Shown here: positions 12,775-50,778 of the stretch, in pieces | Numbering within the stretch: the first letter of the stretch is position 1 | Layout: the number at the start of each line of letters is the position of its first letter | Source: an uncultured virus (IMG/VR IMGVR_UViG_3300008954_001678) | Taxonomy: Duplodnaviria > Heunggongvirae > Uroviricota > Caudoviricetes | IMG/VR virus record: IMGVR_UViG_3300008954_001678 | Reading direction: 5' to 3' (one strand) | DNA length: 64,000 nt | Program-made: the position numbers and the translations under genes | Notes under the pieces: generated by a model | The model's input: only the letters and a program-made list of their open reading frames with translations | The model's database searches: none | Told to the model about the DNA's origin: nothing

Positions 12775-12778
12775 AAAA

Positions 12779-13054
12779 ATGAAACTTAGAAAAGGAAAAC
12801 CACATTTAGTTAGTAGGAAAAGACACATACTTAAAACAATTACCTGGAGAGTAGTGGGTACGTTAGACACAATGCTATTAGGATGGTTAGTAAGTGGAGA
12901 CCCAATGATAGGATTAAAAGTAGGTGCATTAGAATTATTTACAAAAATGATACTTTATTATTTTCATGAAAGAGCCTGGTATAATTTTGGATTGGGAATA
13001 CCAAAAAGAAAATTATTTAATAAATTAAAAGAGAAAAATGGAAACCATCAGTAA
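12779..13054 (+). CDS. DUF2061-like membrane protein
   Basis: KTITWRVVGTLDT...YYFHERAW. Confidence 0.8.
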   Translation: MKLRKGKPHLVSRKRHILKTITWRVVGTLDTMLLGWLVSGDPMIGLKVGALELFTKMILYYFHERAWYNFGLGIPKRKLFNKLKEKNGNHQ

Positions 13055-13510: not shown

Positions 13511-16500
13511 ATGAATACCTCTGTTAAAAATATACTAAAAGAAGAAGTGAAAGACTCACCAAGGCGTCCGACTATAGAAGATATACAAAATATAATAGAT
13601 AAAGTATATCCACACATAGTCACTAATCTAGGACCAAGTAAATATAATGAAGAAATTCCCCCAGTAGAAATTTGGAATGATATCTACGCTAGATATAGTG
13701 GAATTCCCGAGATGAGAGGAGAAGCGAGTAAGAAGACCAAAGCGGAATGGGTCTACGAAGACAATACCATTTATGTATATCACCTTAATATGGTAGATGT
13801 AGAAGACATAATAAGGTCATTACTACATGAGTATACCCATTCACTACAAGATGAAGAAAAACGTGAAGAAAATCGCCAACTAGGATATGAGAATGACCCA
13901 GATGAAATAGGTGCACACGCAGCTGAAGAAGATTGGGAAGACTATCTTATATACCTTACCGACACCCCTAAACAAAATATAACTGAACAAATAGATGCCA
14001 GTAATGGTTTTACACCCCAATTAATAGCGGTCCTAAAATATATATTCACCCTCTATCCAACTACACAAACTGATGCAAGTAAGTTTACTCTTAAAATGCA
14101 AGATTTATTCAGTAATGATGCACTTGTTTATAATGTACTCTATGTTATTCTAGTTTACAATAAAAATGAAGGGGGATTTGGAAATCTTGAGGAGGTGGTT
14201 AACACTTTAAAACCTGAGGAATACCGTATCACAAATTTATATCAGTACTATCTGAACTATAAGGAGGACTATACCAGTTATGAAGAAGAGGAAGAATGTG
14301 TGGATGGTTATGGTGAACATACTGGTGATGAATGTGAGTGTGAAAATTGGGAGGAAATTGTTATAGAGGATGAAGATGGTGATGAGGAAAGAATTCCATG
14401 TGATGAGGCCGATGAAGACCAATTAGAAAGTATAGGTTGGGATATGGATGATTGTGAATGTGAAGCTTGGGAATATAAAGAAGTAGAATGGTTTTACTAC
14501 GAGGAAACAAGAAAAGATATTTTAACTTATATAGATTTAACATATGGGGGTACTGAAGAGTTACGGGACTATTATAGTATTAGTGATATAGACCACGAGT
14601 TAAATGATGAAGGGGTTGTAACTCTCTGGGAGGATACGGAAGCAATAGATGACGATAGACAAACTTGGGAGTATTTTCCCGATAGTGAAGGTGGAGAGAT
14701 AGGGGATTTCTTTATTGATGGAGAGTGGGAAAAATCTGACATAGTAGATTTGATAACTACTTTCACTAATAAGTTAACTAAGAAAGAATCTTTAAATGAA
14801 CAAGACGAACAAGTAAGTTTGTTCCCTTATGGAGAGTGGGAATTCCCTGTAGGTTGGGAAGACGACGATGATTATATTTCAGAAGTAAAACATCATGTAC
14901 CTGAAAAACTATTCCAAAAGATTTTTAATATATGGGATGAAAACGGTATAGACTTTTCAATATTCAAATTACTAGGAATACCTGCCGATACTGTGGTCCA
15001 CACTTATGTGTTGAAACGATACATTCAAAATACCAAGAAACCTATTCCAGTTTCTTATACATTTGATTGTAATGATTTAAAAGAGTTATTCGATAGAAAT
15101 AATAGGGATTATGATTTGGGGTATATTGAAGACTATCTCTGTGGGAATGATTCATTTTGGGACCATAGCGATTGGTATAATTATGAATGGGAGGATTATA
15201 TGACCGACCAGATTGATGAAAATAATTGGAAAACTATAAGTGAAATTTTTGGAGGTGTATCTCAGTCAGTCGCAGAAGATATGTTAAACGAAAAGTCTTC
15301 TAGTGAAGAAGTTGATGAATTAATAGAAAAATATCAAGAAGATATAAATGACATTCAAAGCTTTATAGTGTGGGCACACAATGATGAACATGAATACGCT
15401 ATTAAAAATGCTATGGCTCAGGATATAGAAGATAAACTAGCGGAACACTTCCAACACGAAGGACAGTTACATACAGATAATAAGGGAAGTAAGAGTTGGA
15501 CCATTGAAGGAGATTTAAGAGATTATGTAAATGACGAATGGGACAATACCGACACATTCCAATATCATCCAGACTATGCCAGTCAACCAATAGAAGATTG
15601 GTTATTAGATACAACTATAACTAATAAAACTCCCCAGTATATTTTTAGTGAATTAATGGATGAAGAATATAGATTCTGGGATTACTGTGAGGGAAAACGA
15701 GGAGACTGTTTAGAGGTAGACACAAGATACTTTGACGGATATTGGTATCCCGATATTGATATTAATAATAGTTTAGCAGATAGATTGAGTGAACTACAGT
15801 ATGAACCAACAGTAACAACCCCAGAAGGTGAAACCAAACCTTTAAATGAAGCTCAACTAGATAAGGATGGTAACGATTTAGAATCTGGGTTAGACCAATA
15901 TGATGGATATACGGAAACAACTCCTTTTACACCAACCGAAGTTAGAGTACTAAACTATATAGCAAGTAAGTGGGCTATGGAAGACCTGAAAGAGATAGTC
16001 AACACGGATGAAACTCAAATCAGTGTCGAGTTAACAACACCGTGGAAAGACACTGTAAAATTATTTGGAGAACGAGTACAGTCAGATGAAGATTACGCAA
16101 AAAGTACGAGATTTGCAAAATGGATAATAGATAATCACAAGGAAGCAGGAGGAGAAGATTTCGATGACGACTCTTTAGATTTTGGAAGAGTAACCAATCC
16201 AATAAAAGCGTGGCCTTCATTATTCTCAGTACGCGGTCGCGAGAGTGGATGGGAAAAGACATATAGAGAGGGAACCATATATATCCCAGCATGGGATAAA
16301 GATGACGCAATGGATAAGGCTTCTGAAGCATGGTGGGACTACGACCCTGATATGGAAACCGTAGACTACGGGGACTATGAAAGTGATGACTTTGAGATAG
16401 ACGATGCAGAACATGATGAGATTCTTAAAGAAGGGAAAATCACTCCAATCGACACTAAAGAAGTTAGTCCAGACTTAGAAATTGGTGACAGAATAATGGT

Positions 16501-17827
16501 ATGGGACTTAACCCCAGACCCTGCACCTCCAGGAGGGTTAGACCGTGATGTAGAGATACCAAGAACTCTTATTGGGATAGTAACAGATTCATTAGATGAT
16601 GATGAAATAGATTTAGAGTCTTTTAGAGGAGGAATTAAATATATGGTAAGAGATGATAGTAGTGGGGAGGAATACGGTTTATATAGAGGAGCGGATGGTT
16701 ATAGTGAACCTTATCTCGATAGAGATAAATGGGTTAAGTTACCTAAAAAAACATTGACAGAGATAAAAAATAATGTGGATTATTATATGAGGTTAAGTGA
16801 AAATGTATATCCTTTTATGGTCAATAAATTAAAAAATTCTAACACTGTAACCCCTAAACAATTAGACGAGTATATTACGTTATATAAAGAAAGTTGTAAT
16901 GTTAATAATAAATTCTTAATTATTAATAGGGAGAAATTAGTGGATAATCTAGAGAGTGAAGGAATAAAAATAGAATTTCCACTTATTAAAGAACACGGTA
17001 CCTTCCCTACTGATAATGAAGATGATTCTTCTATTAATATTCCTGATTGGATGACTAAATTTTTGGTGACAGCTCTTTTCTTTCATCCAGGGGGATGGGG
17101 AGTACCACCTAAGAGATTTAGAGTATTCATGAAACCCAATGGTGAAGTAGTTAAAACGGATATGGGGGCGTCTACTAATCGGTCAGATATTCCAGAACAA
17201 TTTAGAGTAGGGAAAAGTGTAACCTTTGGAGACTTATTAAATTTTGAGAATAATAGTAAATGGGATTTAAGAATGAAAGGAAGACTAAGAGAATCATATA
17301 TTAACCCTAATAAGACTAAACTAACAGAGACCATTTCATCCAAAATTGAAATGACAGCACAAAAGAATCACTATTTAAGGAGAATATTAAAAGAACAAAG
17401 AGAGGACTCTGTGGAAGAATTATTAAGATTAGCAAGAGAAACCAAAAAAGGATGGATGGCAGGACCAGGAAGAAAAAAAGTATTTGAATTTCTTAATAAA
17501 TTAAGAGAAAGTGGACTAGTAAATATGTACCAGTCACCAGATTTTCTATGGTCAGGTTCTGTATGGTTAAGAAAATATATAGATTTACACCATCCTGAAT
17601 ACCTCGAACCTATAGACGAATACGAGGACGATAATATTAATATAAAACAGAAGGAAACTATACAATACCTTCTAGATAATGCAGATTCAGTGAGAGATGT
17701 GATAATTTCTAATATTCTAGCCAAATCAGAGGAAGAAGGAATTACCGATATTAATCACCAAAGTAGAATGATGAGAGGAGCAGCAAAAGATATGTTTAAA
17801 TTGTGGGCTCAATATTTTGCCAGTTAA
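13511..17827 (+). CDS. 1438-aa acidic multidomain (polyvalent-type) protein with N-terminal HExxH metallopeptidase-like domain
   Basis: LLHEYTHSLQ...E; Cys/Glu-rich insert; modules shared with 22374..31034; segments separated by ITEQ, LNEQ, LNEA, LKEG, LTEI, IKEH, LKEQ. Confidence 0.8.
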   Translation: MNTSVKNILKEEVKDSPRRPTIEDIQNIIDKVYPHIVTNLGPSKYNEEIPPVEIWNDIYARYSGIPEMRGEASKKTKAEWVYEDNTIYVYHLNMVDVEDIIRSLLHEYTHSLQDEEKREENRQLGYENDPDEIGAHAAEEDWEDYLIYLTDTPKQNITEQIDASNGFTPQLIAVLKYIFTLYPTTQTDASKFTLKMQDLFSNDALVYNVLYVILVYNKNEGGFGNLEEVVNTLKPEEYRITNLYQYYLNYKEDYTSYEEEEECVDGYGEHTGDECECENWEEIVIEDEDGDEERIPCDEADEDQLESIGWDMDDCECEAWEYKEVEWFYYEETRKDILTYIDLTYGGTEELRDYYSISDIDHELNDEGVVTLWEDTEAIDDDRQTWEYFPDSEGGEIGDFFIDGEWEKSDIVDLITTFTNKLTKKESLNEQDEQVSLFPYGEWEFPVGWEDDDDYISEVKHHVPEKLFQKIFNIWDENGIDFSIFKLLGIPADTVVHTYVLKRYIQNTKKPIPVSYTFDCNDLKELFDRNNRDYDLGYIEDYLCGNDSFWDHSDWYNYEWEDYMTDQIDENNWKTISEIFGGVSQSVAEDMLNEKSSSEEVDELIEKYQEDINDIQSFIVWAHNDEHEYAIKNAMAQDIEDKLAEHFQHEGQLHTDNKGSKSWTIEGDLRDYVNDEWDNTDTFQYHPDYASQPIEDWLLDTTITNKTPQYIFSELMDEEYRFWDYCEGKRGDCLEVDTRYFDGYWYPDIDINNSLADRLSELQYEPTVTTPEGETKPLNEAQLDKDGNDLESGLDQYDGYTETTPFTPTEVRVLNYIASKWAMEDLKEIVNTDETQISVELTTPWKDTVKLFGERVQSDEDYAKSTRFAKWIIDNHKEAGGEDFDDDSLDFGRVTNPIKAWPSLFSVRGRESGWEKTYREGTIYIPAWDKDDAMDKASEAWWDYDPDMETVDYGDYESDDFEIDDAEHDEILKEGKITPIDTKEVSPDLEIGDRIMVWDLTPDPAPPGGLDRDVEIPRTLIGIVTDSLDDDEIDLESFRGGIKYMVRDDSSGEEYGLYRGADGYSEPYLDRDKWVKLPKKTLTEIKNNVDYYMRLSENVYPFMVNKLKNSNTVTPKQLDEYITLYKESCNVNNKFLIINREKLVDNLESEGIKIEFPLIKEHGTFPTDNEDDSSINIPDWMTKFLVTALFFHPGGWGVPPKRFRVFMKPNGEVVKTDMGASTNRSDIPEQFRVGKSVTFGDLLNFENNSKWDLRMKGRLRESYINPNKTKLTETISSKIEMTAQKNHYLRRILKEQREDSVEELLRLARETKKGWMAGPGRKKVFEFLNKLRESGLVNMYQSPDFLWSGSVWLRKYIDLHHPEYLEPIDEYEDDNINIKQKETIQYLLDNADSVRDVIISNILAKSEEEGITDINHQSRMMRGAAKDMFKLWAQYFAS

Positions 17828-18650: not shown

Positions 18651-19139
18651 ATGAAAGTATTAATCACCGAATCACAAAGACAACAACTACTTAAGGAAGC
18701 ACCTCTTCTGACGGATATTTTAAAGAAGGCAATTGTAAAAGCTATTGAGAGTCCTGAAGTACAAAAAATCATTAAAAAAGGAATGGAGAATGTGTTAGAG
18801 AAAGGAGCAGGTGAGTTAAGAAAGTTTACTGACAATCCTAGAGGATACGTAGAAAATCTTAAAGCAAACATAAAACCAAACGTTACCCTTGAACCAGAAC
18901 AAGATATTGATATTCCTGGAGAATATGAAGATGAAATAGTAGATGTAGACGTAGAAGAAGTAGTTGAAAGCCCTGAAATTACTGCAAAAAAGGAAGAAAT
19001 ATCCGTAAACAGAAGATTCTTAGAAGAATTAAAATCCAAAAAAGGTTATAAAAGTAGAAGAGATAGAGATAATATTGATTTATTAACTATCAATATAGGA
19101 AAACTCGAAAGAGATTTACAAGCTTTGTATGAAAGATAA
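18651..19139 (+). CDS. Leader-bearing hypothetical protein
   Basis: MKVLITESQRQQLLKE N-terminus; TATTTAT upstream. Confidence 0.7.
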   Translation: MKVLITESQRQQLLKEAPLLTDILKKAIVKAIESPEVQKIIKKGMENVLEKGAGELRKFTDNPRGYVENLKANIKPNVTLEPEQDIDIPGEYEDEIVDVDVEEVVESPEITAKKEEISVNRRFLEELKSKKGYKSRRDRDNIDLLTINIGKLERDLQALYER

Positions 19140-19338
19140 AATTAAACAAATATTAAGAGAGGAATTTTATCATGAAAACTACACTCCTGATAAGTGGGAC
19201 TTACTGGAACACGATTTAAGGAAATACGTAGAAAAATTAATAACCGACCATCGTAAAAACTTCCATAATGACCAATACGAAGTGATTAGTGCAATTGAAG
19301 AGATAATGGAAGGAATGTTTGCAAGAGTTCCTAGATAA
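19129..19338 (+). CDS. Leader-bearing small protein
   Basis: MKDKIKQILREE. Confidence 0.6.
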   Translation: MKDKIKQILREEFYHENYTPDKWDLLEHDLRKYVEKLITDHRKNFHNDQYEVISAIEEIMEGMFARVPR

Positions 19339-19609
19339 TCTTGACAACCCCCAGAAACTTTATTATTCTTAAATAAAAATATAAAGATATGCCAAAATCA
19401 AGACATAGAAAAAACCACAAACAGAAAGTTAAACAATACAAAAAAGGTCTCTCAGACGCCCGAAACAGAGAAATTAAGAGATATTATGAGGAAATGAAAG
19501 AGAAACAAGAAGAGATGGCAAGGGTGAGAGAAGAGCAAGGAGAAACACAAAAGCCCATAACTCTATAATATATACTTTCTAATCATTACTTATATAATAT
19601 TTATGAGTA

Positions 19610-20959
19610 ATGGACTATTCAAAAAAATCAAAATACAAAGTTATTAAGGAAGGAGAGTCTCCTGAAGAAAATGACATTCTTGTAAGTTTACAATCTCTTG
19701 TAGACCGCTGGGATGAAAATGAAATGTCCCCTGCCTGTGAATATAAAGACGAACTCCAAAATTTAATAAATGATTACTTGCAACGTCCTTTACATGAAGT
19801 GGAAGGAAGAGTGCGCCACAACTACAACTACGACACCAAAAAGGTAGAAGAGACTCAGGAGAAAATAAATGACAATGTTTTCTATAAATTAGTAAAACAT
19901 ATTGTCAACTCTACTAATCTAAACCAACTCAAAGAGATGCATGAAGATGGTATAGAAAACTATACTGAGATATTAGAGATACTTAAATTATATGGTTTAC
20001 CGTTATATGTGGAGAATGAGGCAGATGGAATCATAACGCGACTAATGTTAGCAGCGATAGATAATCATGAAGAAATAAAGGAAGGAAGGATTAACGATTT
20101 TAGTGGGTTAAAGTTAAGACCACTGATAGAATACAATGTAGACCTAGAGGAATCTTGGACCGAACATAAATGGTATTCTTGGAGAGTCAATATAAAAGGA
20201 TATTCCGCAGAGGATGTTGCAAGGGAAGTTGTTACAAATGAAGATGGTCTTTATGATTGGTGGGAATGGGATGATGGACCCCATTTTAGTGATGAACATG
20301 GTGATAGTGATAGAGATGGCATACAAGTCGTCAATATTGCACCAGCGACTCCAGTAGAATCCACAACAATTAAAGAATCAGAGACAGAGTATTTCTCAGG
20401 ATATAAGATTCAGAACAATAACGACCTAAAAGTTACGAAGACAGTAAATTCTATGTGTATCCATATTTTAAAGGAATTTGGAAAACAAGAAATCGGAGAG
20501 ATGGTAGACATGAATATAGAGGAAGTGGAGGGTAGACTACGGAATATTCTTAAACTTTATTCTTGGCCTGCACCCAACACAGACCCAGTGATGGCTAGTA
20601 AACAACTCATCCAATTTATGTGGGATAAAAATGTACCAGATAACTACAGTCCTTTTATAGGAGAATCTTTACCTCCAATTCATGAGTACAATATATCTCA
20701 AGAATTTATAGAATGGGACAAAACTCTCAAAAGAGCTTATGTAAATGTATACGATACTAATTTTAATACTGTCAAATGTGAAATGCAGGGAGGAAATTTC
20801 TGGGAATATGATTATACATTTGATGACTATGAAGTTCTAGAGAGTGACCACATTGGAGAGGAAGAATGGAAGAGTGTGATAATAGACGGTGAGACAGTAT
20901 GGACCGACTTTCAAAAAAACGCTAACCCTAAATATGACCCTACTGTTGGGTGTGAATAA
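19610..20959 (+). CDS. Acidic protein with two diverged copies of the module also found in both giant proteins
   Basis: ILKLY...LxEYN...YDWWEWD / FWEYD pattern occurs twice. Confidence 0.7.
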   Translation: MDYSKKSKYKVIKEGESPEENDILVSLQSLVDRWDENEMSPACEYKDELQNLINDYLQRPLHEVEGRVRHNYNYDTKKVEETQEKINDNVFYKLVKHIVNSTNLNQLKEMHEDGIENYTEILEILKLYGLPLYVENEADGIITRLMLAAIDNHEEIKEGRINDFSGLKLRPLIEYNVDLEESWTEHKWYSWRVNIKGYSAEDVAREVVTNEDGLYDWWEWDDGPHFSDEHGDSDRDGIQVVNIAPATPVESTTIKESETEYFSGYKIQNNNDLKVTKTVNSMCIHILKEFGKQEIGEMVDMNIEEVEGRLRNILKLYSWPAPNTDPVMASKQLIQFMWDKNVPDNYSPFIGESLPPIHEYNISQEFIEWDKTLKRAYVNVYDTNFNTVKCEMQGGNFWEYDYTFDDYEVLESDHIGEEEWKSVIIDGETVWTDFQKNANPKYDPTVGCE

Positions 20960-20975
20960 TAAAATAAAAAGACAT

Positions 20976-22370
20976 ATGAAAATTAAATTAACAAATAACC
21001 AAATAGGAAGACTCATAAAAGAAGGACTAGATAACGAACCCCAAACTCTTTTAAAAGAAGCGACTCTCTCCGCACCTTTACCAGGTACCTTATCAGTGAA
21101 TAGTAAGTTTTCCAAACGAAGATGTCTAAGAGGACCATCCTCGTGTAGAGCTCATAATGGTACCGATTATAAAGCACGGTCAGGTACCCAAGCACTTGCA
21201 ATTGCGGATGGAACAGTGTCTAAAGTAAAACCTAATCAAGGTAGATGTGGTGGAACTATTATTATTAAACATTCTAATGGTTATAAAAGTTCTTACTGTC
21301 ATATGAAAAGAATAACAGTAAAAAAAGGTGATTCAGTCAAACAAGGACAGCTCATTGGATATACAGGTGGTGGTTCTAAAGATTATGGTAGAGGAAATTC
21401 TATGGGTGCACATTTACATTTTGGTTTGAGACTTAACGGAAAATGGGTAGACCCAGAAAAATATATAGATAAATCTAATGTCTTAGCAGGGGGAACTGAA
21501 ACAAGACCTGAAGGGATGATTGCACAATTTGGTGATGGATTAGATGGACCGATTAGTCAGGAAGTTAAAGATATACAACAAAAATTAGAGGACTTAAATT
21601 ATTTATTACCTAGACATGGTGTAGACGGTAAGTTTGGCCCTGAGACTCAAGCAACAGTGGAAGCATTCCAAGAGGACCACCTCAATACGGTCACTGGAGT
21701 AGTAGATAAAGAAACTTTCGCTGCATTACAAGACGCAAAAAATGTTAATCTAAAACCACAGAGAAATGATTTAACTAAAGTAAAAATAAAAAGTAAGGGT
21801 GGAGATATGGGTAAGTTTGGTCCTACGGTAGTAGAAGCTTTGAATAAGGCAGCAGAAAAACATTCTCTCCCTAAAAGTATTTTATTTACCATTGCAAATA
21901 TAGAATCTGGGGGTAATCCAGGAGCAATCAATAAAAGAAGTAGAGCATCTGGGTTGTTCCAAATATTACCTAGGTATTTTAAAAGTTATGGAGTTACTAA
22001 TACTTCCGTATGGGACCCATATGTTAATGCAGATGTCGCAGCTGCTAAACTAAAAGAAAAATTCACTGAACTTACTACTTTCCTAGGTAGACCACCATCA
22101 GCATATGAATTATACTTAGCTCATAATCAAGGAACTTTAGGGTTTAAAGTTATAAGAACAGCATGCACTACTTATGGAGAAGTGGCAACGAGTAAAGAAG
22201 GTAAACACAATTTACAGAAAGCAGCTGTGAGTTTAGGGTATAATAAAAGAACAGGAGGAAAAATATATAGAAATATGATTGGTAATAAAGGAGATACTCC
22301 ATGTAAATTTTTACGAGGATGGGAGGAGTTATATACTTCTAAACAAATCTCACCATCACAATTTGCTTAA
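20976..22370 (+). CDS. Multidomain peptidoglycan hydrolase: M23 peptidase + PG-binding + SLT-like lytic transglycosylase
   Basis: HNGTD...YCHM...HLHF (M23); GVDGKFGPETQATVEAFQ (PG_binding_1); IESGGNPGA...ASGLFQI...LAHNQG (SLT); start reassigned to ATG 20976. Confidence 0.9.
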   Translation: MKIKLTNNQIGRLIKEGLDNEPQTLLKEATLSAPLPGTLSVNSKFSKRRCLRGPSSCRAHNGTDYKARSGTQALAIADGTVSKVKPNQGRCGGTIIIKHSNGYKSSYCHMKRITVKKGDSVKQGQLIGYTGGGSKDYGRGNSMGAHLHFGLRLNGKWVDPEKYIDKSNVLAGGTETRPEGMIAQFGDGLDGPISQEVKDIQQKLEDLNYLLPRHGVDGKFGPETQATVEAFQEDHLNTVTGVVDKETFAALQDAKNVNLKPQRNDLTKVKIKSKGGDMGKFGPTVVEALNKAAEKHSLPKSILFTIANIESGGNPGAINKRSRASGLFQILPRYFKSYGVTNTSVWDPYVNADVAAAKLKEKFTELTTFLGRPPSAYELYLAHNQGTLGFKVIRTACTTYGEVATSKEGKHNLQKAAVSLGYNKRTGGKIYRNMIGNKGDTPCKFLRGWEELYTSKQISPSQFA

Positions 22371-22373
22371 TTT

Positions 22374-25300
22374 ATGAGTTTAAAAAATAACATATTATCA
22401 AGAACGGTTACATTTTTAAAAGAAAATCATTTAGATATTAAAGATTTAAATGAAGAAATGGTAAAGAATGTCATGTCTTCTGACAATTTGTCAGAACAAG
22501 TAGACCCAGCGGAGTATGGAATCATAGATGGTGAAAAAAGAGAGAAAGAGATAGAGTTTGATGTAGAAGTAAGAGGAGAACCACTCACTAAAAAAGAATT
22601 AACTGCTGTCAACCTTTTACATAAGAATTTCACTAAACCTGAATTAGAAAACCTTTCCAGTGAAACCCCAGGTAACTACTCACTAGGTGAAAAGTTTTGG
22701 GATGTGATGAAATTGTTAGGGTATCATTATACCTATGGAGGAGGAGACGCTCACCCTAAGAATACCCGAGTAGCACATTATGCAAAATTAGCAGCTGACA
22801 ACTACACAGAAGAAGGTAATTATGAAGACATCACCAATCCAATTAGAACTCCCTTATCATGGTGGAACGTAGAATTAGACCAAACAGGTTCACAAGTAGA
22901 AATGAAAACTGGGGACGTCACTCTTATGGGATATGATGAGGAGGACGCAGAATCACGAGCTATGTCGGAGTTTGACAGTTGGGAAGGAGAATGGGAAACT
23001 CAAGATTGGGGTGACTATGAAGAATACGATACAGAAGTAAGAAGTATAGAAAAATTAGATGCCGACCCAATGACTGTAAACGAACAAGTAGAGGGTTATG
23101 CTGAAGAAGACGAAGTAGACCGAACACCATTCACATCAATGGAGGTTAAAATATTAAAACAATTACATCGAAATTTAAACAAAGATGAATTGCAACAGAT
23201 ATCGGAAGAGACGCCAGAAACCTATAAAGGAGGAAGCGGAGAAAAGTTTTGGAATGTCATGAAACTCTTTGGTATTAACTTTTCTAATGACATAGCAATT
23301 GATACAAGAGTATCGAAATATGCAAAATGGGCATTCGATAATTGGACAGAAGAAGGTGATTATGAAAATATAGAAGCACCTATTAAAACACCACTTAAAT
23401 GGTACCAGGTAGATAGGAGTGAGACAGGTAGTCAAGTAGAATATAAAGATGGGACCGCAGAGGTTTTAGGTTTTGATGAAGATGATGCGGGTGAGAGAGC
23501 AGATTATGATTTTTATTCTTGGGGTGGAGAAATGGAAACTACTGATTGGGGTGACTATGAAACATATGACTCAAAAATAGAGGATACCCAATTTATAAGA
23601 CTAGATGAAACAATCAGAAGAATACTTCGAGAACAAGAAGAAGGACCTGATTTAAGAACTAAAGCTCTTATTTCTATTGGTGGAATCCAAAGAGATAAGG
23701 TAACAACCCCTAAATTTATTAAAAATATATTTAAAAGTTCGGGACATCAAGCTAAAAGTAGTGGGGTTGAACCAGAAGATGGTGGAGAATGGAACAGATT
23801 TTATACGCCAGGAACTAATATAGATTTGAATGCTGATTTACAAAGAATTAGAGATAGAATAAGATTCGAAGAATATGGCGAAATGTTCCAACAAGGAATA
23901 GAAGGTAGAGGGTTTGCGTTTGAAGGGATGTTAGCAGGACTTTTCAATGGAGAACCAATGGAAGCTGGAGGAAAAGAAGACATTAAAGTAGGTAATGACT
24001 ACTATTCCATTAAACAATCCAACCCAGGTGATGCGTGGGACACTGGAAGTTTACAGAAAGGATATCAGTTTGCAAGAGAAAATATGGTAAGAGACGGTTT
24101 TGCAGAAGAAGAAATTCCACCAACACCAGTTGAATTAATGATTGCAGGTCAGGACTATATTCAATATCAAGCACAAATGTTAACCGAATCATTTAAGGCA
24201 AGTAATGGGCAACCACTTAAATGGATTTTTGCTCATGTTTTAGATGATAAACATATTAAATATGTGTCAATGGATTCAGATGAGTTGATTAGTACAATAT
24301 TAAGTAGTGATTGTAGTAATGGTACTGAAAGTAGAGCATGTGCAGTTGGTAAAAGTAGAAAGAAAGATACTGGAATTAGAATAAAATCCCGATTTGTATT
24401 AGGTGCTGACCCTAAGATGATTACCTTTCCAGAGGTAAGTGAAGAAGATATTAGAAGTATTATTTATGACCCAGAAGGAGATAGAATAGAGGATAAAATT
24501 AGAAGAATATTTAAAAATCCAAATAAAGTTAGTCAATATACAGTAGAATACATTAGAGATAATCCTAAGGAGTTCGTAGACGCAGTAAATAGAGAGATTC
24601 CTAATTTAACTCTAGAGGAAAGAAATATTGCCTACAATCTTTTATTAGAAGAAACAGATGTATTTGGTCAAGGACTCTTAGACCCAATAGCACCAGAAGA
24701 ATTTGAAGGTACGCAAGAAGAATGGGAGAAAATAGTGAAGGATACGGAAGAAGAAGGAGATAAGTTTGACTATGATTATGATGAAGATGAAACACTAATA
24801 TACACAGGAGGACCAACAGACCCTGAACGAGGATTCGTTGCTCCCTCAAAAGAAGTAACAACCAATGTTTGTAGAGTAGAAGGATTTTGTCAAGAACAAG
24901 GACCAATCACTTTTGGACAACTTAAAGCTTTAGTTGAGGCAGCAACAAGAAAAAGAATTCAAGCGGACATGGGACGTGGGGTTTTTAAAATGTTATGGAG
25001 AATAATACCATTTTTTGTCCCACAAATATTACTAGCGGCGGTTGGTGTTACAGCTACAAGAGCTTTCAATAAAATAATTACACCCGCACTTACTGATACT
25101 AGAGGTTATAAAGAATGGTGGGGTAAAGCTGTATTAAAAGCAATGGATATAGCAGAAGGGGATTATATTCCTGATATCACGATGGGAGATGACCCTTTGA
25201 GTAAAGTGTTCTTTATATCTGATGGACTAATGTCAATGATTAAAGATAAATACAAACTTAAATTCGCTAGATATGTTGCGGATTACGCTGCTACCCGACC

Positions 25301-28300
25301 AGATAATGAACCAGTACCAGAATGGTTTGTAGAAAATTTATTAAGAGATTACTTAAATCAAAAGTTTTTACTAAACCCACCTTTACCTGTTAAAATAGAT
25401 ATAGAAACTAAGAAATTAGATGAATCATATCCACCATTAAAACCTGAAGAGCAAAAAAAAATAGCATTAACCACCCAAGTTTTTAATACACTAGACGATG
25501 AATTTTCTCTTCATCCTCATCCTGAAGGAGATATAGAGAGTGTAGAAGAACCCGTAGCGTTGTATTCACAGTCTCTGGACATGTTTGTCCCAATGGACTA
25601 TATCTTTACTCCGATTAATAATATGGTAGATGGTGGAATCCCTAAAGAGGATATCGAAATGTTTGTGGATATCATAACGGATTGGTTAAATCAACGTATA
25701 AATTTAAAAACAACTCATCATCTTAACGAAGAATCACATAATCCTTTTGGATTGTTAAAGAATGATTGGAAAGATGAGTTACTCCGTCATGAGAAAAACT
25801 TATCCGCCAACGAGTTAAAACATAAAAAACTTGCAGACCAATTAAATGGTATGACTGTAACTATTCCAGTAGATATACATGATGGTGCAGAACCAGTAAT
25901 TGGTACCACTGACATAACATTTACTATTGTTAGGCCTTTTATATTCCAAGGTTTAAGAGGTGACTTTTTTGATAATATGAGACCATCAGAAGATTATAAA
26001 GACAACCCTAAAAGGCCTACAGTAATTAAGTATGATTTAGTTTTTAGAGGTGTGGAACCTGGAAGTATATTAGAAGAATTACTTGATGAGAACTCCTTAG
26101 AAGGAATGGACATACATAATATATCAGCGAGGGAAAGACTAATTGAATTACTAGTTGAAGAAAGTTATAACATTAATGAGTCTCTTATGAAAAACTATTT
26201 TAAATTATATGGTGCAACTATAGGTAGAGTGGGTAAGATATACGACTCACAACAATTAGAAGAACAATCCACCAAATTCAGAGATAATTGGCAAGAAGAC
26301 AAAAAATTTACTGAGAAACCTGCTGATGATAGTAAATTAAATGTTTCACCAGAATCACTCTGGAAGTACTTAAATTCTAACCACAGGGAAAGATTAATAA
26401 AAGCAATAACCCCAACACTAGACTGTCTTATATATAACTGTTATGACGGATGGAAAAATGACCCAGATAATGAATGGGATGAAGATGAGGTGGATTTCGA
26501 CGAAATGGCACAGGGATATTGTAGTGAATGTGGGGATGAGTTAAATGCAGAGTTAGAAAAAGTAGACCAAGACTTAGTTAAGTTAGGTTTTGCCCAAGAA
26601 CATGATAGTGAAGGGTATGATGACAATCATAGAAAAACTTGGTTAGAAAAACCTTTTCCACATAGTTACAATGTATGGGTAGATGGTGTTGTTAAAGAAA
26701 TAAATCCTAGATTCTATGTGGATGTAAATGATGACATATCATATTGGGAGGACCGTCTAATCACTCAACCCAAATTATTTGAACATAAAGAATCCCAGTT
26801 AAGTCCCAAACTACAAATAGGAGATGAGATTATTGTGGTTGATGTGGGAACAAAAGAGATAAACCCCGAGAACAAACCAGATATGTTTTTACGTTATTTC
26901 GTTACAAAGATATATAGTGGTGATGAATTTCATAGACCTCCTTTTAGTGAACGAACATATTATGGATTGAATAGGCCTGATGTAGACGTGACTGACCCTG
27001 AAAGACCAGGAGTGTACGACCAGTCATCAACTCACAAATATCTTTTTCCTCATTATGATACTTGGATATTTAACCCAAAAGGAAAAACCATGAAATATGA
27101 AGATGCCTTTCAACCAGACCACTACTTGTCTGATGAGGAATATGAAGAACTATATGGGGATGACGGACAAGATGAATACGGGGGTTATCCTGACTTAATT
27201 CCAGAAACTAAAAAAGAAAAAATACGTGAACATACAGAAAGCAGACTTAATCCTGAATTAGAAGAAGGTGATACAATACTTGTAGTGAATAGAAAGGAGA
27301 CACCAGTAGGATATAGAGACCCTTTACCAGGACATACACCAGAATTATTCACCACCTATGTGGTTATAGAGAAAAGATATAGTGGTCATAAAGCAAAAGA
27401 CCCTTATCATTATTTCTTATTACCAGAAGACAAATATGATATTTTTATAAACGACCCATATGCTCGAGAGGTAGATGACCATGAAAGGTCATTATTCCCT
27501 TGGATACACGATTGGATTCTAGATAAGGAAGACATAATTACTGAACAGAAAGACTCTAAACTTAATCCTGAGTTAATGGTAGGTGATGAGATAGTAGTGG
27601 TTTCTACTGAAGGAATTCATGATTTCGGGTCACCCAACTTATTTAAACCTTATGTTGTAGTAGGAATTAAACATGGTACTACTATGAACAGAGAAAAGGA
27701 TAAGTGGACTCATGACGAAGATGAAGAGCAAACACCAGAAAGAAATAGACTTGGATTTAGGAAGGGATTCGATACTATTCCGTATACGTATTATCAAATA
27801 GAACCTATTGGGATGACAGATGAAGAGAGAACAGGTGCTATGTTAGCTGGAGGTGGACGTATGAAACCAATGTATATTTTTCCTTCACCTAGTGAATATA
27901 GAGGAAAAGACCAATGGATACTAAGACCAGGATTTAGAAGAGGAGAACATCTAACTGAAGATAAAATGGATGAGGTACCTTTATCACAAATTATCGGGGA
28001 TAATGTTAATAATGAAGAATTTATGGAAATACTTAATAGATTTCCTGAGAAACTTCAGAGAGAGTTATTAGACGAAAGACCTAAACCTGAAGATTTTATT
28101 GAAGAGTTTAAGAGTTACCATTTAAATTCACCAGAACCTATAGAAATCTATTTAGAAGATGAATTAAATAAGGACCATACTATAGATACAATGAGTAGAA
28201 CACCCGAAGATGTGGTAGATACCATTAATGATGAATGGGATACTGATTATGAGAGTATTGAAGTTTATGACCCCAACCCAGACAGGTATTTTGAATATGC

Positions 28301-31034
28301 AAACTTTCCAGGTAGTACGGCAAAACCATCTTTAATGGTGAATGGAGAAATAGCATTTGGGGTAGCCCGATTTGTAGCTGCCTTACTAAGAGGAGATGAA
28401 AAACTGAGAGTTTGGGACATTACAAAGAAAGAAAATCTTACGGAACATATCCACCCTGGAATTAATCCAGAGTTAGAAATAGGCGACATTATAAAAATAA
28501 TAGACATAGATAGAGAAGTAGAGAACAATACAATAAAATATCATATCCCACCACCAGAGTTAAGACCAGAAAAATTTACACCATACGCAGTAGTAGACAA
28601 AGAAAGTAATGGTTCGGAATCAAAATATCCTTTCCGATATACATTAGTTGCAGAAGACGAACTGGAGGGATATGAAAGATATCCAGTCCTACAAAGCAAC
28701 CCTCTCTTTCAGAAATACACAACAAAACTTCTATTCCCTTGGGTACACCAATGGATTTATGCTGACACTCCAATGGCAAATAAGGTAGATAGATTAACAA
28801 TTAGTGAACATAAAGACTCTGAAGTAAATCCTGATTTAGAAGAAGGTGACATTATAAGAGTAATTGATATTGATGGTGAACACGCAAATATGCCAGATAG
28901 ATTTGGTATGTACAAAGTATACGGTGTTATGGGATTAGGTGGCAGTCAGGAACCTTATTACCAACTATCAGGTGAAACATCTGAGGTAATACATGATAGA
29001 CTAATGAATGGAAAATATCTCTACCGAGGGGATACATGGATTTATGCTAAGACACCAATCGCAACTAAGGTAGATAGGAAAACAATCAGTGAACATACAC
29101 AACCCAGACTTAATCCTGAATTAAAGGTAGGAGACCACATCTTAGTTGTGCATAGCAATGAAACGGTTAATGCTCCAGAATTATATGTCCCATATGTGGT
29201 TGAAGACATAAGACAAAGTAATATGACACAAGAAATATATTATAATTTAGACATGTTATATCCACCAACTAAAGAAGATATGTTAGGTCATGATATCCGT
29301 AGAAAAGACTTACGTTTAGCTCCAAACCAAGGTGATGCATGGATATTCGTTCCACCAGATTACGTAGACATGATGCATGAGTCTACTGTGGATGATAGAG
29401 AAAGGATAATAGAAGCACTTAATGATTTGGTTTATAGAGATGAACCTAGAGAGAAACATACTAGACGAATGCAAAAGGACTTAGGAGATTTAAGAGGGTT
29501 TCCTTTAGATAAGTACAGAAATATGCCACCACCTGCAAATGAGTCCAGTGAGACAGAAGAAGAAATAGGATATCTAGAAGGTATTCCTGTAGACAAGACT
29601 CTTGTAGATAGTGCTGACGAAATACGTGAACACTTTACTGAGTTCCTATCTTCTAAAGGATTGGAATATCCTATTGAAGAATTAAAACAAGTCATGCCAG
29701 GAGTTAAAGCAATTATCTTAAGATTAAAATATTATTATAATAGACCTCGACCATGGCAAATTGCACAAGCGAAAGGATTACCCTTAAATTCAGAAACCTT
29801 ACAATCTAGTTCTTCACCTTCCTACCCATCAGGTCATGCAACACAAGGTAGATTTGTGGCTCGATATCTTGCCGACCTTTATCCTGAATATGAGGAAGAG
29901 ATTAGAAAGATAGGTGAAGAAATTGCTTATAGTAGAAATATGGCAAAGGTTCACTATCCTAGTGATTCAAAATTTGGTAAGTTACTTGGAGATGACATGT
30001 ATGAATATGTGTATAAACCACAAACAGAAGAATTAGAAACCGAGTTAGACGAATACTGCCCTATGGGAAACCCAAACCGTTGTGAAATAGTGGATTATGA
30101 TAGGTTACCTGATACAATACATGAAGGGGTAAGTATTGATGATTCTTCTCACCCATATAAAGAAGAACAATATATTGATTTTATAGAATATGCAGTAGAC
30201 CAATTAGATATAGAGGAACCACCATTCATTAAAATAGAAAGAGAACCCACATCTAATTACACTACAGGTTCTTATAATAAGAAAACTGGGGAGATTAAAG
30301 TAAAAGGTGTGAGAAGACAGTTGGCTGACTTACTAAGAAGTATCGCTCACGAAATGGTACACCATCGTCAAAATGAATTAGGTCTTATTATCGGAAAGAT
30401 TCCGGCTGTCGGTGGAAAGATAGAAGACGATGCAAATTTATATGCGGGACGATTAGTTAAAAGTTACGGACAACAATTTCCTAACATATACACAGAGAGT
30501 ACTGTTCAAAAAGTATTTAGAAGAACGATTAACGAAGCTTTAGAACCAGAATGGTCCATAAGACGAGGACGACAACACTATGCTATGAATAGAACTCCCG
30601 AATCCGGCGAACAAATTACAGCATTTAATGATTACTTAGTAAAGAAATCTCCATTTATTTATGACGGATTCGAGTATTATCTAAGTGCTATTCCCGGTAA
30701 TATGCCTAATAGTGCAAAGATAGACCTTTTCATTCCTCAAATAGACAAAGGAGAGGATGCCGATAAGATATGGTCTAAGGATAACTTACAACTTAATAAT
30801 TCTCATTTTCCACGTCAAACCCAAACATATTATAAACAATACAGGGATAGAATCGGTGAGTTCGCCAATGAAATGGAAGAAATAGGAAAGTTATTTTCTA
30901 TAGAGAGTGTGATTATTAATAGAAATATTAATAGACCATGGAGTAGAATACCAGATAGTTACGGTAATGAGAATATCAGACCAGGTAAACGAGTACCAAG
31001 AGGATGGCCAAGAGAAGAATTAGAGAGGGTTTAA
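22374..31034 (+). CDS. 2886-aa mosaic protein with repeated modules, PAP2-type phosphatase, HExxH metallopeptidase-like and possible nuclease and ParB-like domains
   Basis: KYYYNRPRP...SYPSGH...SR...VHYPSD (PAP2); SIAHEMVHHRQ; two copies of module A; six copies of module B (E[HQ]xxxx[LIV][NS]PxLxxGD). Confidence 0.85.
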   Translation: MSLKNNILSRTVTFLKENHLDIKDLNEEMVKNVMSSDNLSEQVDPAEYGIIDGEKREKEIEFDVEVRGEPLTKKELTAVNLLHKNFTKPELENLSSETPGNYSLGEKFWDVMKLLGYHYTYGGGDAHPKNTRVAHYAKLAADNYTEEGNYEDITNPIRTPLSWWNVELDQTGSQVEMKTGDVTLMGYDEEDAESRAMSEFDSWEGEWETQDWGDYEEYDTEVRSIEKLDADPMTVNEQVEGYAEEDEVDRTPFTSMEVKILKQLHRNLNKDELQQISEETPETYKGGSGEKFWNVMKLFGINFSNDIAIDTRVSKYAKWAFDNWTEEGDYENIEAPIKTPLKWYQVDRSETGSQVEYKDGTAEVLGFDEDDAGERADYDFYSWGGEMETTDWGDYETYDSKIEDTQFIRLDETIRRILREQEEGPDLRTKALISIGGIQRDKVTTPKFIKNIFKSSGHQAKSSGVEPEDGGEWNRFYTPGTNIDLNADLQRIRDRIRFEEYGEMFQQGIEGRGFAFEGMLAGLFNGEPMEAGGKEDIKVGNDYYSIKQSNPGDAWDTGSLQKGYQFARENMVRDGFAEEEIPPTPVELMIAGQDYIQYQAQMLTESFKASNGQPLKWIFAHVLDDKHIKYVSMDSDELISTILSSDCSNGTESRACAVGKSRKKDTGIRIKSRFVLGADPKMITFPEVSEEDIRSIIYDPEGDRIEDKIRRIFKNPNKVSQYTVEYIRDNPKEFVDAVNREIPNLTLEERNIAYNLLLEETDVFGQGLLDPIAPEEFEGTQEEWEKIVKDTEEEGDKFDYDYDEDETLIYTGGPTDPERGFVAPSKEVTTNVCRVEGFCQEQGPITFGQLKALVEAATRKRIQADMGRGVFKMLWRIIPFFVPQILLAAVGVTATRAFNKIITPALTDTRGYKEWWGKAVLKAMDIAEGDYIPDITMGDDPLSKVFFISDGLMSMIKDKYKLKFARYVADYAATRPDNEPVPEWFVENLLRDYLNQKFLLNPPLPVKIDIETKKLDESYPPLKPEEQKKIALTTQVFNTLDDEFSLHPHPEGDIESVEEPVALYSQSLDMFVPMDYIFTPINNMVDGGIPKEDIEMFVDIITDWLNQRINLKTTHHLNEESHNPFGLLKNDWKDELLRHEKNLSANELKHKKLADQLNGMTVTIPVDIHDGAEPVIGTTDITFTIVRPFIFQGLRGDFFDNMRPSEDYKDNPKRPTVIKYDLVFRGVEPGSILEELLDENSLEGMDIHNISARERLIELLVEESYNINESLMKNYFKLYGATIGRVGKIYDSQQLEEQSTKFRDNWQEDKKFTEKPADDSKLNVSPESLWKYLNSNHRERLIKAITPTLDCLIYNCYDGWKNDPDNEWDEDEVDFDEMAQGYCSECGDELNAELEKVDQDLVKLGFAQEHDSEGYDDNHRKTWLEKPFPHSYNVWVDGVVKEINPRFYVDVNDDISYWEDRLITQPKLFEHKESQLSPKLQIGDEIIVVDVGTKEINPENKPDMFLRYFVTKIYSGDEFHRPPFSERTYYGLNRPDVDVTDPERPGVYDQSSTHKYLFPHYDTWIFNPKGKTMKYEDAFQPDHYLSDEEYEELYGDDGQDEYGGYPDLIPETKKEKIREHTESRLNPELEEGDTILVVNRKETPVGYRDPLPGHTPELFTTYVVIEKRYSGHKAKDPYHYFLLPEDKYDIFINDPYAREVDDHERSLFPWIHDWILDKEDIITEQKDSKLNPELMVGDEIVVVSTEGIHDFGSPNLFKPYVVVGIKHGTTMNREKDKWTHDEDEEQTPERNRLGFRKGFDTIPYTYYQIEPIGMTDEERTGAMLAGGGRMKPMYIFPSPSEYRGKDQWILRPGFRRGEHLTEDKMDEVPLSQIIGDNVNNEEFMEILNRFPEKLQRELLDERPKPEDFIEEFKSYHLNSPEPIEIYLEDELNKDHTIDTMSRTPEDVVDTINDEWDTDYESIEVYDPNPDRYFEYANFPGSTAKPSLMVNGEIAFGVARFVAALLRGDEKLRVWDITKKENLTEHIHPGINPELEIGDIIKIIDIDREVENNTIKYHIPPPELRPEKFTPYAVVDKESNGSESKYPFRYTLVAEDELEGYERYPVLQSNPLFQKYTTKLLFPWVHQWIYADTPMANKVDRLTISEHKDSEVNPDLEEGDIIRVIDIDGEHANMPDRFGMYKVYGVMGLGGSQEPYYQLSGETSEVIHDRLMNGKYLYRGDTWIYAKTPIATKVDRKTISEHTQPRLNPELKVGDHILVVHSNETVNAPELYVPYVVEDIRQSNMTQEIYYNLDMLYPPTKEDMLGHDIRRKDLRLAPNQGDAWIFVPPDYVDMMHESTVDDRERIIEALNDLVYRDEPREKHTRRMQKDLGDLRGFPLDKYRNMPPPANESSETEEEIGYLEGIPVDKTLVDSADEIREHFTEFLSSKGLEYPIEELKQVMPGVKAIILRLKYYYNRPRPWQIAQAKGLPLNSETLQSSSSPSYPSGHATQGRFVARYLADLYPEYEEEIRKIGEEIAYSRNMAKVHYPSDSKFGKLLGDDMYEYVYKPQTEELETELDEYCPMGNPNRCEIVDYDRLPDTIHEGVSIDDSSHPYKEEQYIDFIEYAVDQLDIEEPPFIKIEREPTSNYTTGSYNKKTGEIKVKGVRRQLADLLRSIAHEMVHHRQNELGLIIGKIPAVGGKIEDDANLYAGRLVKSYGQQFPNIYTESTVQKVFRRTINEALEPEWSIRRGRQHYAMNRTPESGEQITAFNDYLVKKSPFIYDGFEYYLSAIPGNMPNSAKIDLFIPQIDKGEDADKIWSKDNLQLNNSHFPRQTQTYYKQYRDRIGEFANEMEEIGKLFSIESVIINRNINRPWSRIPDSYGNENIRPGKRVPRGWPREELERV

Positions 31035-31178: not shown

Positions 31179-31394
31179 ATGAATAAAGAAGAAAAAGCAC
31201 GTTATTACGACTGGTTAATGAAACAATACCAGATTAATGAGAACCAAATTAGTAAAATTCCTCAGTTAACTATAGAAGAACAAAGTAAATCTTCTGATGT
31301 GGTTAGATACTCACCAGAAAATCTTCAAAAGGTTAACCATTTCCGTCAGATGCTACAACGAATCCAAAATGAAATGCAATCAATTATGCAATAA
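31179..31394 (+). CDS. Hypothetical protein
   Basis: 71-aa ORF coupled to the next gene (TAATG). Confidence 0.6.
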   Translation: MNKEEKARYYDWLMKQYQINENQISKIPQLTIEEQSKSSDVVRYSPENLQKVNHFRQMLQRIQNEMQSIMQ

Positions 31395-32761
31395 TGTATA
31401 AAGTAGGGGATGTATTAGAATTAGAATTAAAAGAGTTAAAGAGAGCGGGTGCATACAAAAAACTAAAACTTCAAGATGAACCTGTGGTAATCTTTAAAAG
31501 AAACTCTGAAGATATTCTTTCAGATAAACCTATAGAGTCTATTAGAATCAGGGTGGTTAACGATTCTGAAGGAAATTTCTTTTATCACCAAATTATAGAT
31601 GTGATAGGGAATAATAAAAGAGATGAGTTAAAGGTTTCCCATGGGGATAATTATAAAGTTAAATGTGAAGTAGTAGACATAAAACAAATAACTTTTAAAG
31701 ATACCATAGAATTAAAATTAAAAGATTTAACTTCAAGATTTATTTATTTAGAACCCACAGAAAAGTACCATAATCTCCCGACCGACCTAGATGAAAGATG
31801 GAAGAAATATCCCTTAATTCAATTAAAAGGTGGTGATGGGTACGACTATCCAGCATTAGAAAAATCTATCAAGAAAGAAGGACTTAAAGAACCCCTTCGT
31901 ATTAATGAGAATCTATTAAATGGTAAACACCATTCTTACGAACTTGCAAATGGACATCATAGATGGATAGTTTTACACCAATTGTATGGTGAAAATCATG
32001 TAGTTAAATGTACAGTTTCTCGTATAAGAAATATAGAAGAAGACGCAAGTAAGAATATAGATGCTCTTCTTAAGTCTACAACTTATCAGAATTTAACCAA
32101 AGAAGAAAGAGAAGAATTATTAACCCCTGAGATTACTACTGTTAGAAGACATGTTTTACCAACAGATACTTGTAGAGTCAGTACTGACCCTGATAAGATT
32201 TATCTCATCCCACTTAACTGGATATCTCCTCATCGCTTATATGAAGAGGTAGTAGAGACTCAACCTTCTGAAACATGGTATGACACACCCTGGGATGTAC
32301 TAGCAAGTGCCCGAGAACGTTTAGGGGAGAACCAACTATACAAAGATGAATTAAAAAAACATCCAATCAGACCAGAAACAGGAGACTTTAATAAACTCGA
32401 TAAAAGTATTCGTGAGGAAGGATTATTAAGACCCTTAACTTTAATGGATGTGAGTGGTATAGGGAGTGAGAAACCATATAAGTTATTGTTAGGTCACCAT
32501 AGATGGTTAGTCCTATGTAAAATATATGGTAAAGACCATCCAGTTAAATGTAGAATATGGTACACACAAAAGAAGATACCTACTATGGACGCAATTAAAG
32601 GACCCATTAAATCTATGGATAAAGTCAAAGCTCGATACCAAGAATGGATAAAGTGGAGAACAGATGAACACCAAAGATTACACAACCAAGTTTCCAGTAC
32701 CAAAGTAAATCAAACTAAGAAGGACAAGTTTAATTTTAATCCAAATAAATTAGGACTTTAG
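31394..32761 (+). CDS. Protein with tandem ParB/Srx-like domains
   Basis: LEKSIKKEGLKEPL...LANGHHRW and LDKSIREEGLLRPL...LLGHHRW. Confidence 0.8.
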   Translation: MYKVGDVLELELKELKRAGAYKKLKLQDEPVVIFKRNSEDILSDKPIESIRIRVVNDSEGNFFYHQIIDVIGNNKRDELKVSHGDNYKVKCEVVDIKQITFKDTIELKLKDLTSRFIYLEPTEKYHNLPTDLDERWKKYPLIQLKGGDGYDYPALEKSIKKEGLKEPLRINENLLNGKHHSYELANGHHRWIVLHQLYGENHVVKCTVSRIRNIEEDASKNIDALLKSTTYQNLTKEEREELLTPEITTVRRHVLPTDTCRVSTDPDKIYLIPLNWISPHRLYEEVVETQPSETWYDTPWDVLASARERLGENQLYKDELKKHPIRPETGDFNKLDKSIREEGLLRPLTLMDVSGIGSEKPYKLLLGHHRWLVLCKIYGKDHPVKCRIWYTQKKIPTMDAIKGPIKSMDKVKARYQEWIKWRTDEHQRLHNQVSSTKVNQTKKDKFNFNPNKLGL

Positions 32762-37088: not shown

Positions 37089-37103
37089 AAGTATTTATTG
37101 TAT

Positions 37104-37598
37104 ATGAAACTAATTAATACAGTAAGAGATATTATCCAGGAACAAGATACGGATAAAGGTAAGAAATGGATTTCTACCGAAGATAAGAACTTTGTCATGA
37201 AACATAAGAAGTATATTGCTGATTGTGTTAAAGACCCTAAGAAACATAAGTTCTGTGAAAAACTTCTTTCTCTTATGGATGTCACGTCCACTACTACAAC
37301 GACCACTAAGGTACTTCCTGAGAATACCATGGCCGCGACTACACGTAAAGGTAGAGGCAATTGGTCTCCAGAAGCGGAACAAGACCTATATGCGTTTCAC
37401 CCTGAATTAAAGAAGGACATAGCTCTAGAAGAGGATTTTGTTGAAGAAGATTATTCACTACGAGATACTTTTACATCAGCTGATAGAAGAATGTTGCATG
37501 CGATTTATGATGTTCTTGTTAAAGGTGGTTCAGGTGGTGGTTACAAAGGTGGAAGAAAACGTTCAATTGCTCCTCTGGGCCATTTATCCCCTAATTAA
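37104..37598 (+). CDS. Leader-bearing hypothetical protein
   Basis: MKLINTVRDIIQEQ; TATTTAT at 37092. Confidence 0.65.
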   Translation: MKLINTVRDIIQEQDTDKGKKWISTEDKNFVMKHKKYIADCVKDPKKHKFCEKLLSLMDVTSTTTTTTKVLPENTMAATTRKGRGNWSPEAEQDLYAFHPELKKDIALEEDFVEEDYSLRDTFTSADRRMLHAIYDVLVKGGSGGGYKGGRKRSIAPLGHLSPN

Positions 37599-37600
37599 AA

Positions 37601-38356: not shown

Positions 38357-38420
38357 TTTATTAGGAAACCCAACCAGTTTAGCTTTTCTATTATATTTAT
38401 ATATTAAAAACTACACTACT

Positions 38421-39755: not shown

Positions 39756-39764
39756 ATTAATATT

Positions 39765-40403: not shown

Positions 40404-40410
40404 GAGTAAT

Positions 40411-40782: not shown

Positions 40783-40831
40783 ACCTCACCTTTTTTACCC
40801 AATATAAAGTATTTATTATAAAACCCTTATA

Positions 40832-42169: not shown

Positions 42170-42175
42170 ATTACT

Positions 42176-50776: not shown

Positions 50777-50778
50777 CT

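Follow-up and report, generated by a model that had tools for sequence, protein, structure and literature searches.

The prohead protease gp21 of phage T4 is reported to cut at L/I-X-E; Asp in place of the Glu of this site blocks processing, not targeting, and large fusions, such as those with beta-galactosidase, are packaged and delivered (PMC9026906). T4 Alt is described as cut at both ITE-6 and LTE-619 (PMC5694885), and gp22, gp67 and gp68 of the core as fragmented by gp21. For polyvalent proteins, delivery with the DNA and release by proteolysis were proposed by Iyer et al. (2017, PMC5512222), who drew the analogy with RNA-virus polyproteins. Here, a window of 64,000 nt was analysed, the first 64 kb of the linear 77.7-kb uncultured virus record IMGVR_UViG_3300008954_001678 (Caudoviricetes; completeness about 37%). 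It holds an open reading frame (ORF; 22374-31034, plus strand) for a chain of 2886 amino acids (aa) that is probably loaded whole into the prohead, cut at the Glu residues of its inter-module joints by a gp21-type protease, and ejected in pieces with the DNA.

The chain consists of about 17 modules from 11 families in the order 41-aa leader, A1, A2, B, C, D, E, F, S1-S3, G, S4-S6, PAP2, 24-aa mini-unit, zincin and K. It is acidic (Glu+Asp 19%, Lys+Arg 12%). Joint sites of the form [ILVM]xE have their Glu at positions 41, 237, 412/420, 759/760, 1017, 1119, 1297, 1470, 1619, 1724, 1862, 2024, 2145, 2240, 2336, 2584 and 2721. A first-pass annotation, made by a model from the letters and their ORFs, had proposed a polyprotein whose domain transitions coincide with such sites; the ORF and every site that it listed are present, and it overlooked two further joint sites, at Glu 2347 and 2560. 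It also passed over the repeat nature of eight of the 17 modules, which are copies of two families: the six S units (one SH3-like repeat family) and A1 and A2 (about 50% identical; 146 instances of family A in the protein set described below).

Motif placement was assessed in 180 proteins, comprising the query and 179 homologs, taken from one list of 60 and from the best 120 of 128 matches of another (one entry being the query itself). The proteins were aligned all against all without regard to the motif, and the resulting breakpoints were made non-redundant (n=306). The motif Glu fell at offset 0 in 52 of the 306 breakpoints, a sevenfold excess over the expected 6.8 ± 2.8, so that the proposed coincidence holds for this part of the breakpoints; the motif lay within five residues in 139 (69 expected). 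Control motifs gave no excess at offset 0 ([ILVM]xD, 5 vs. 8.4; [ILVM]xK, 3 vs. 5.8; [^ILVM]xE, 27 vs. 24; [ILVM]E, 9 vs. 6.2; [AGST]xE, 3 vs. 7.0), and [ILVM]xxE was slightly raised (13 vs. 6.9 ± 2.4). In a cruder test confined to the query, 10 of 25 segment starts lay within 3 aa of a site (p=0.0007).

The site preceding module C was compared across relatives. Of 51 distinct windows, 50 had Glu at P1 and 47 had Leu, Ile or Val at P3, with many different residues at P2 and synonymous codon variation across 37 DNA windows; as these alignments show, the motif is conserved at the protein level. Short module-C proteins (15 picked from 115 matches) carried [ILVM]xE within their first 25 aa in 13 cases. 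After module C, the motif was found in six of six fused forms vs. two of seven in which the module is terminal, a count that leaves out P0219 (aberrant end) and the internal site of P0269. Among distant short G proteins, [IL]xE stood before the module in five of five and after it in none, and all eight fused G forms listed had the motif after the module. Where an S unit opens a protein, Met stands at the position of the motif; the zincin that occurs by itself in L066 follows a short motif-ended leader. Module C is a gene of its own in three phage genomes of 635-735 kb (L001:19953-20663, L002:19884-20552 and L003:19758-20516); its product has a hydrophobic stretch and, in two of the three, starts with a leader of 13-14 aa that ends in [IL]xE. 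The predicted cut products thus match independently existing proteins, because the stand-alone forms have motif-ended leaders and mostly no motif at the C end. The claim that the joints use the same motif as the leader ends is borne out both by these modules and by the leader of the chain itself (Table 1), which homologs P0165, L027 and L055 have in similar form.

Unit order among relatives, a comparison suggested at the first pass, proved highly variable: 104 different module orders were found in the 180 proteins (some strings end at contig ends), and module content differed strongly even between close relatives. Contigs from marine runs were compared at 85% likeness and hence stem mostly from related phages. 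Two of four joints in one contig set were a 1263-nt skip corresponding to Glu1724-Glu2145 (421 codons) and a 414-nt step back corresponding to Glu1724-Glu1862 (138 codons); the remaining two were short and lay inside modules. In a second set, six of eight distinct joints with known inserted letters were in frame with both ends at most 12 codons from a joint Glu (frames read by hand), most joints resting on one contig per run and conserved repeat ends favouring breaks there. Two of these six rebuild the motif from other letters; of the other two, one is an indel inside a module and one has a single end at a site. Related phages, as these contigs show, delete or duplicate modules motif-to-motif and in frame.

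Head genes were sought in the relatives. All three viral contigs carrying module C had a Peptidase_S77 match over the cut-off, and two of the three a gp23 match. In relative G001, a protease at 116602-117303 that matches T4 gp21 (E 9e-15) occurs together with a T4-type portal, gp23 and an acidic, motif-rich, scaffold-like gene. In the gp23 proteins of G001 and of a second relative, G002, residues 58-60 read INE and form the final site ahead of the conserved body; T4 gp23 itself shortens from 521 to 456 residues. In these comparisons the modular build and its reshuffling at the motif are accompanied, in relatives, by a gp21-type protease and a motif-bearing gp23.

Late expression, packaging, cutting and injection of the chain are steps that we infer. 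The chain would be made late and brought into the prohead core by its leader; during head maturation, a protease of the T4 gp21 type would cut after each exposed joint Glu. The folded proteins freed in this way, of 95-340 aa, would stay in the head and probably enter the host with the DNA. A single leader would load many types of cargo at a fixed ratio, the pieces would be small enough for portal and tail, and the set of cargo could be altered by recombination at the joints. The proposal of one chain cut into 15 or more effectors retains its first half, a jointed chain with a protease motif for which the comparative evidence speaks strongly; its second half was too strong for a chain with eight repeat copies among 17 modules, three enzyme folds and a ParB label that found no confirmation. 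A wider reading, whose chances we place slightly short of even, gives these marine jumbo phages a combinatorial library of in-frame cassettes, in which a three-residue site would be both the joint for swapping, duplicating or losing modules and the point of release by the head protease, and one gene would deliver at least 17 proteins into the host. In strategy this would resemble the polyproteins of RNA viruses, with the enzyme of capsid maturation as the protease in charge; at least seven uncharacterised families would then be injected as factors of host takeover or counter-defence.

Several observations qualify the proposal or weigh against it. [ILVM]xE occurs 58 times in the chain, whose composition (E 10.8%, ILVM 21.7%) would predict about 68, and since there is no overall excess, the claim rests on the position of the motif; the first-pass annotation had named sites inside folded domains at background frequency as telling against it, and in bulk, though not at the breakpoints, the motif is at or below background. 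No motif lay within five residues in 167 of the 306 breakpoints, many of them visibly inside modules, where similarity fades, and in the query-only test segment ends were not significant (4 of 25, p=0.41). About 35 further sites inside modules would need protection by folding. Structure models were made of aa 421-1470 and aa 1863-2886, from alignments without nine rows that held D only and without several rows of MP and K. In the latter model, the predicted local distance difference test score (pLDDT; 10-residue blocks, read by hand) was below 50 at five of seven joint sites vs. one of 14 other [ILVM]xE sites (means 47 and 77), a difference that speaks for the proposal but is partly built in by the alignment, rows of which ended there. 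In the former, the four internal joints had low pLDDT, as had modules C-E throughout. The window's own contig, 37% complete, gave no S77 match. About 80% of the head proteins of phage SPN3US are reported as uncut, and its known cuts take off end propeptides (PMC10052503). The strongly acidic chain is unlike the basic internal proteins of T4. The association of leader-bearing genes with an upstream TATTTAT, found in G000 (p 0.003) and G002 (p 0.001), was not seen in G001 (p 0.83).

The joints could instead be left over from the fusion of modules that each brought a leader, whose last residues were kept, and now serve as recombination joints, the chain being packaged and trimmed at its ends only, like T4 Alt. 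Leader-like spacers do persist at aa 413-420, 2337-2347 and 2711-2721, stand-alone modules bear such leaders, and rearrangements do occur at joints. We hold this to be unlikely: at most joints the leader is gone, yet P3 and P1 are near invariant while P2 and the codons vary; no conserved DNA cassette was found at the joints, the column identity of 17 joint windows being only 42%, without a single invariant base; and an exposed site inside the prohead would presumably meet the protease anyway. A role as acidic prohead core or filler, with pieces that are cut at the joints and serve head assembly or DNA organisation and not host attack, appears a little less probable again. It would suit the composition, the eight non-enzymatic-looking repeat modules of 17, the gp21 fragmentation of T4 gp22, gp67 and gp68, and the scaffold-like protein of the relative, rich in the same motif. 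Variable module content between close relatives fits an essential assembly part poorly, and the nuclease, phosphatase and peptidase folds, with leader-tagged wall hydrolases nearby, fit delivered cargo.

Cutting by the chain's own zincin module or, once inside the host, by the phage's ClpP or a host protease is improbable in our estimate. Such autoprocessing by a zincin has been proposed for polyvalent proteins (PMC5512222), and the chain has an HExxH zincin fold and the window a ClpP gene; only 45 zincin instances were counted in the 180 proteins, however, chains without one carry the joint motif too, and this motif fits the published rule of gp21 and occurs in the gp23 propeptide of the clade. 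Chance coincidence in a Glu-rich protein, or an ORF that is an assembly chimera, is the least probable of all and hardly to be entertained. The background-level motif count and the lack of any single public contig (among the marine metagenome contigs) spanning the whole gene would agree with it. The sevenfold excess at offset 0, where control motifs stayed flat, together with conservation of the module-C site, largely refutes chance, and against a chimera stand an identical 2886-aa protein with two member sequences in the protein collection, homologs P0002 and P0003 collinear with it over 1300-1500 aa, and coverage of 30 of 30 bins in run X1.

Modules were compared singly with Pfam, PHROG and NCBIfam, and PAP2 gave the sole significant match (Pfam PF01569, 40.7 bits, cut-off 27.2); module A1 matched no family in these three. 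The PAP2 model matched 7f17 (PhoN/PhoC fold; Z 16.4, root mean square deviation 2.9, 176 aligned), and a PhoC family match was below the cut-off. The three active-site motifs were recognised by eye. The PAP2 phosphatase proposed at the first pass is firmly identified as a PAP2/class A acid phosphatase. The metallopeptidase-like HExxH unit likewise stood up: fold comparison of the model (YbeY-like 1oz9, Z 10.1; Wss1, Z 9.4) confirms a predicted zincin fold, the substrate of which may be peptide or RNA. For module B, the suggested PD-(D/E)xK nuclease is weakly supported. E97, D116 and K127 (E, D, S-x-K) are invariant in 12 of 12 alignment rows and the top five fold matches are restriction enzymes, with weak scores (Z ≤7.6; best Foldseek E 0.06). 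These three, the nuclease weakly, are the only recognisable enzyme folds predicted in the chain. The ParB-like unit placed in module G found no support from BLAST, Pfam, PDB-HMM or hhalign; the model is of low confidence in this part, and its resemblance to ParB was by eye only, around a Gly-x-x-Arg. Units S4-S6 matched tandem Tudor/SH3 domains weakly (E 0.02-0.04). No convincing match came from profile searches of PDB with A, B, S and G, and no usable one from ESM Atlas (A2 and C) or from a PDB search with A2. The 24-aa two-cysteine unit has neighbours other than PAP2 in at least one homolog (P0070) and is possibly a released mini-protein. Coordinates are collected in Table 1.

Table 1. Predicted features of the 2886-aa chain and two neighbouring genes (window coordinates).
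Feature	Coordinates	Strand	Remark
Leader, 41 aa, [IL]xE at Glu 17, 27, 41	22374..22496	+	candidate capsid-targeting propeptide
Module A1, acidic C-half	22497..23084	+	47-50% identical to A2
Module A2	23085..23609	+	copies also in ORFs 13511 and 19610
Spacer, 8 aa, flanked by two sites	23610..23633	+	resembles leftover leader; present in some homologs, single site in others
Module B, predicted PD-(D/E)xK restriction-endonuclease-like fold	23634..24650	+	model pLDDT about 90
Module C, conserved	24651..25424	+	stand-alone gene in 635-735 kb phages; low-confidence model
Module D, about 100 aa	25425..25730	+	
Module E	25731..26264	+	
Module F, predicted helical	26265..26783	+	no clear fold match
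Repeat units S1, S2, S3, each beginning after a site	26784..27959	+	SH3/Tudor-like by homology to S4-S6
Module G	27960..28445	+	stand-alone forms have leaders
Repeat units S4, S5, S6	28446..29381	+	cores pLDDT 75-90
Spacer, 11 aa, flanked by two sites, followed by class A acid phosphatase/PAP2 module (29415-30053)	29382..30053	+	
Two-cysteine mini-unit, 24 aa, between two sites	30054..30125	+	
HExxH zincin-like metallopeptidase module (30126-30503) and spacer	30126..30536	+	
Module K	30537..31034	+	C-end without motif here, with motif where K is internal (P0009)
M23 peptidase, peptidoglycan (PG)-binding and SLT lysozyme domains behind IxE-ended leader	20889..22370	+	3 bases 5' of chain ORF
Second mosaic protein, 1438 aa: short leader, HExxH unit (by eye), module A, S-like unit	13511..17827	+	

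The gene at 20889 and the chain ORF likely belong to one late operon, as judged from their spacing and a TATTTAT site at 19598. TATTTAT stands directly 5' of many leader-bearing genes (e.g. at 13499, 18640 and 19598) and is a candidate late promoter; over the whole window it is not over-represented (56 vs. 52). Many small, unrelated ORFs at 37098-43063, 46821-61342 and 18651-22370 start with basic amphipathic leaders ending in [IL]xE and include, besides the enzyme at 20889, a phage lysozyme (48744); these leader-bearing ORFs are candidates for single-module head cargo. The 1438-aa protein has [IL]xE at its apparent joints and homologs in G001 and G002. Further along the same contig, 63361-65430 encodes a mosaic protein of 689 aa in which an S-like unit follows an IxE site, and 73023-76535 a cysteine-rich repeat protein of 1170 aa that G001 and G002 have as well. 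Downstream of the chain, 31394-32761 encodes a tandem pair of ParB-like domains that are 38% identical, with a Pfam ParB_N match just below cut-off. An adenylylsulphate kinase beside a cytidylyltransferase-like gene (11999-13054) may serve sulfate activation; 2301-3143 encodes a class II tRNA-synthetase-like catalytic domain that lacks an anticodon domain, and 50779-51435 encodes a ClpP.

Four runs contain at least half of the gene's words, all of them marine metagenomes from a single study, and contigs from marine metagenomes carry pieces of the gene at ≥99% identity; the listed data sets with the gene's words include no RNA set. A tblastn search of phages returned six records and no cultured relative: four are uncultured genomes of 635-735 kb, matched by module C, and the other two are weak matches to Synechococcus phages. 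The four genomes, which are the nearest annotated records, have one module in common with the chain at about 31% identity. More closely related are contigs from metagenomes, up to about 300 kb long, among them G001 (232 kb), whose ligase and ClpP are 75% and 72% identical to those of the window. A search of viral contigs with aa 1-419 gave no match, and the marker genes MCP, TerL and PolB were not on this contig. TAnnTTTG, the Bacteroidota -7 promoter element, lies directly 5' of six window ORFs other than leader genes as a candidate host-type promoter, and a Bacteroidota host is therefore likely.

If the proposal is true, the head protease of large T4-like phages unpacks a multi-protein cargo, beyond the trimming of propeptides, and many proteins can be loaded through one T4-type tag. 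By a simple rule, the motif would then allow injected proteins to be predicted in uncultured jumbo phages and giant hypothetical proteins to be divided into testable units, and several new small protein families would become candidates for counter-defence.

No published description of a cargo polyprotein jointed by prohead-protease sites was found in a search covering mainly the main texts of openly available papers; the text seen of PMC7824862, PMC9503650, PMC13282480, PMC12373910 and PMC3012670 describes injected phage proteins without this architecture. Moraphages (Perez-Hernandez et al. 2025, PMC12619734), aquatic phages of 200-307 kb with T4-type prohead protease, portal and capsid, have predicted Bacteroidota hosts, and some have a glutamine synthetase, as does relative G002 (L090:18506-19558). 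The present clade, with homologs on contigs of up to about 300 kb, resembles them; the moraphage text seen mentions neither these proteins nor the motif. phiKZ gp175 and SPN3US gp245 are described as cutting after the Glu of a three-residue motif in many head proteins, with several sites per propeptide (PMC10052503, PMC5694885). Their motif is A/S/G-X-E, whereas [AGST]xE showed no enrichment at the joints here, and their reported cuts take off propeptides without setting several mature domains free.

The polyvalent-protein parallel drawn by the first-pass annotation applies insofar as many unrelated domains, a zincin included, are likewise joined in one mosaic chain. In those proteins an embedded zincin is the proposed processing enzyme and the text seen gives no junction motif (PMC5512222), whereas a head protease is proposed here; none of their characteristic domains (MuF, ArdC, DarA, ART, LPD, DdrB-ParB) was scored in the chain by Pfam, which scored PAP2 only. 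By analogy, the closest known model is rather the T4 system of capsid-targeting sequence (CTS) and gp21. T4 IPI-III and Alt likewise begin with a short N-terminal propeptide ending in L/I-X-E (PMC9026906, PMC5694885, PMC3012670); they are variable accessory cargo, Alt being cut at both ends, and gp20/gp21/gp23-type head genes are found in the relatives here. T4 cargo is described as one small, basic domain per gene from which end propeptides are removed, whereas the present chain has about 17 modules, is acidic, carries internal sites and is reshuffled in order. We propose that it would work like T4 CTS/gp21 cargo, scaled from single small proteins to 17 modules.

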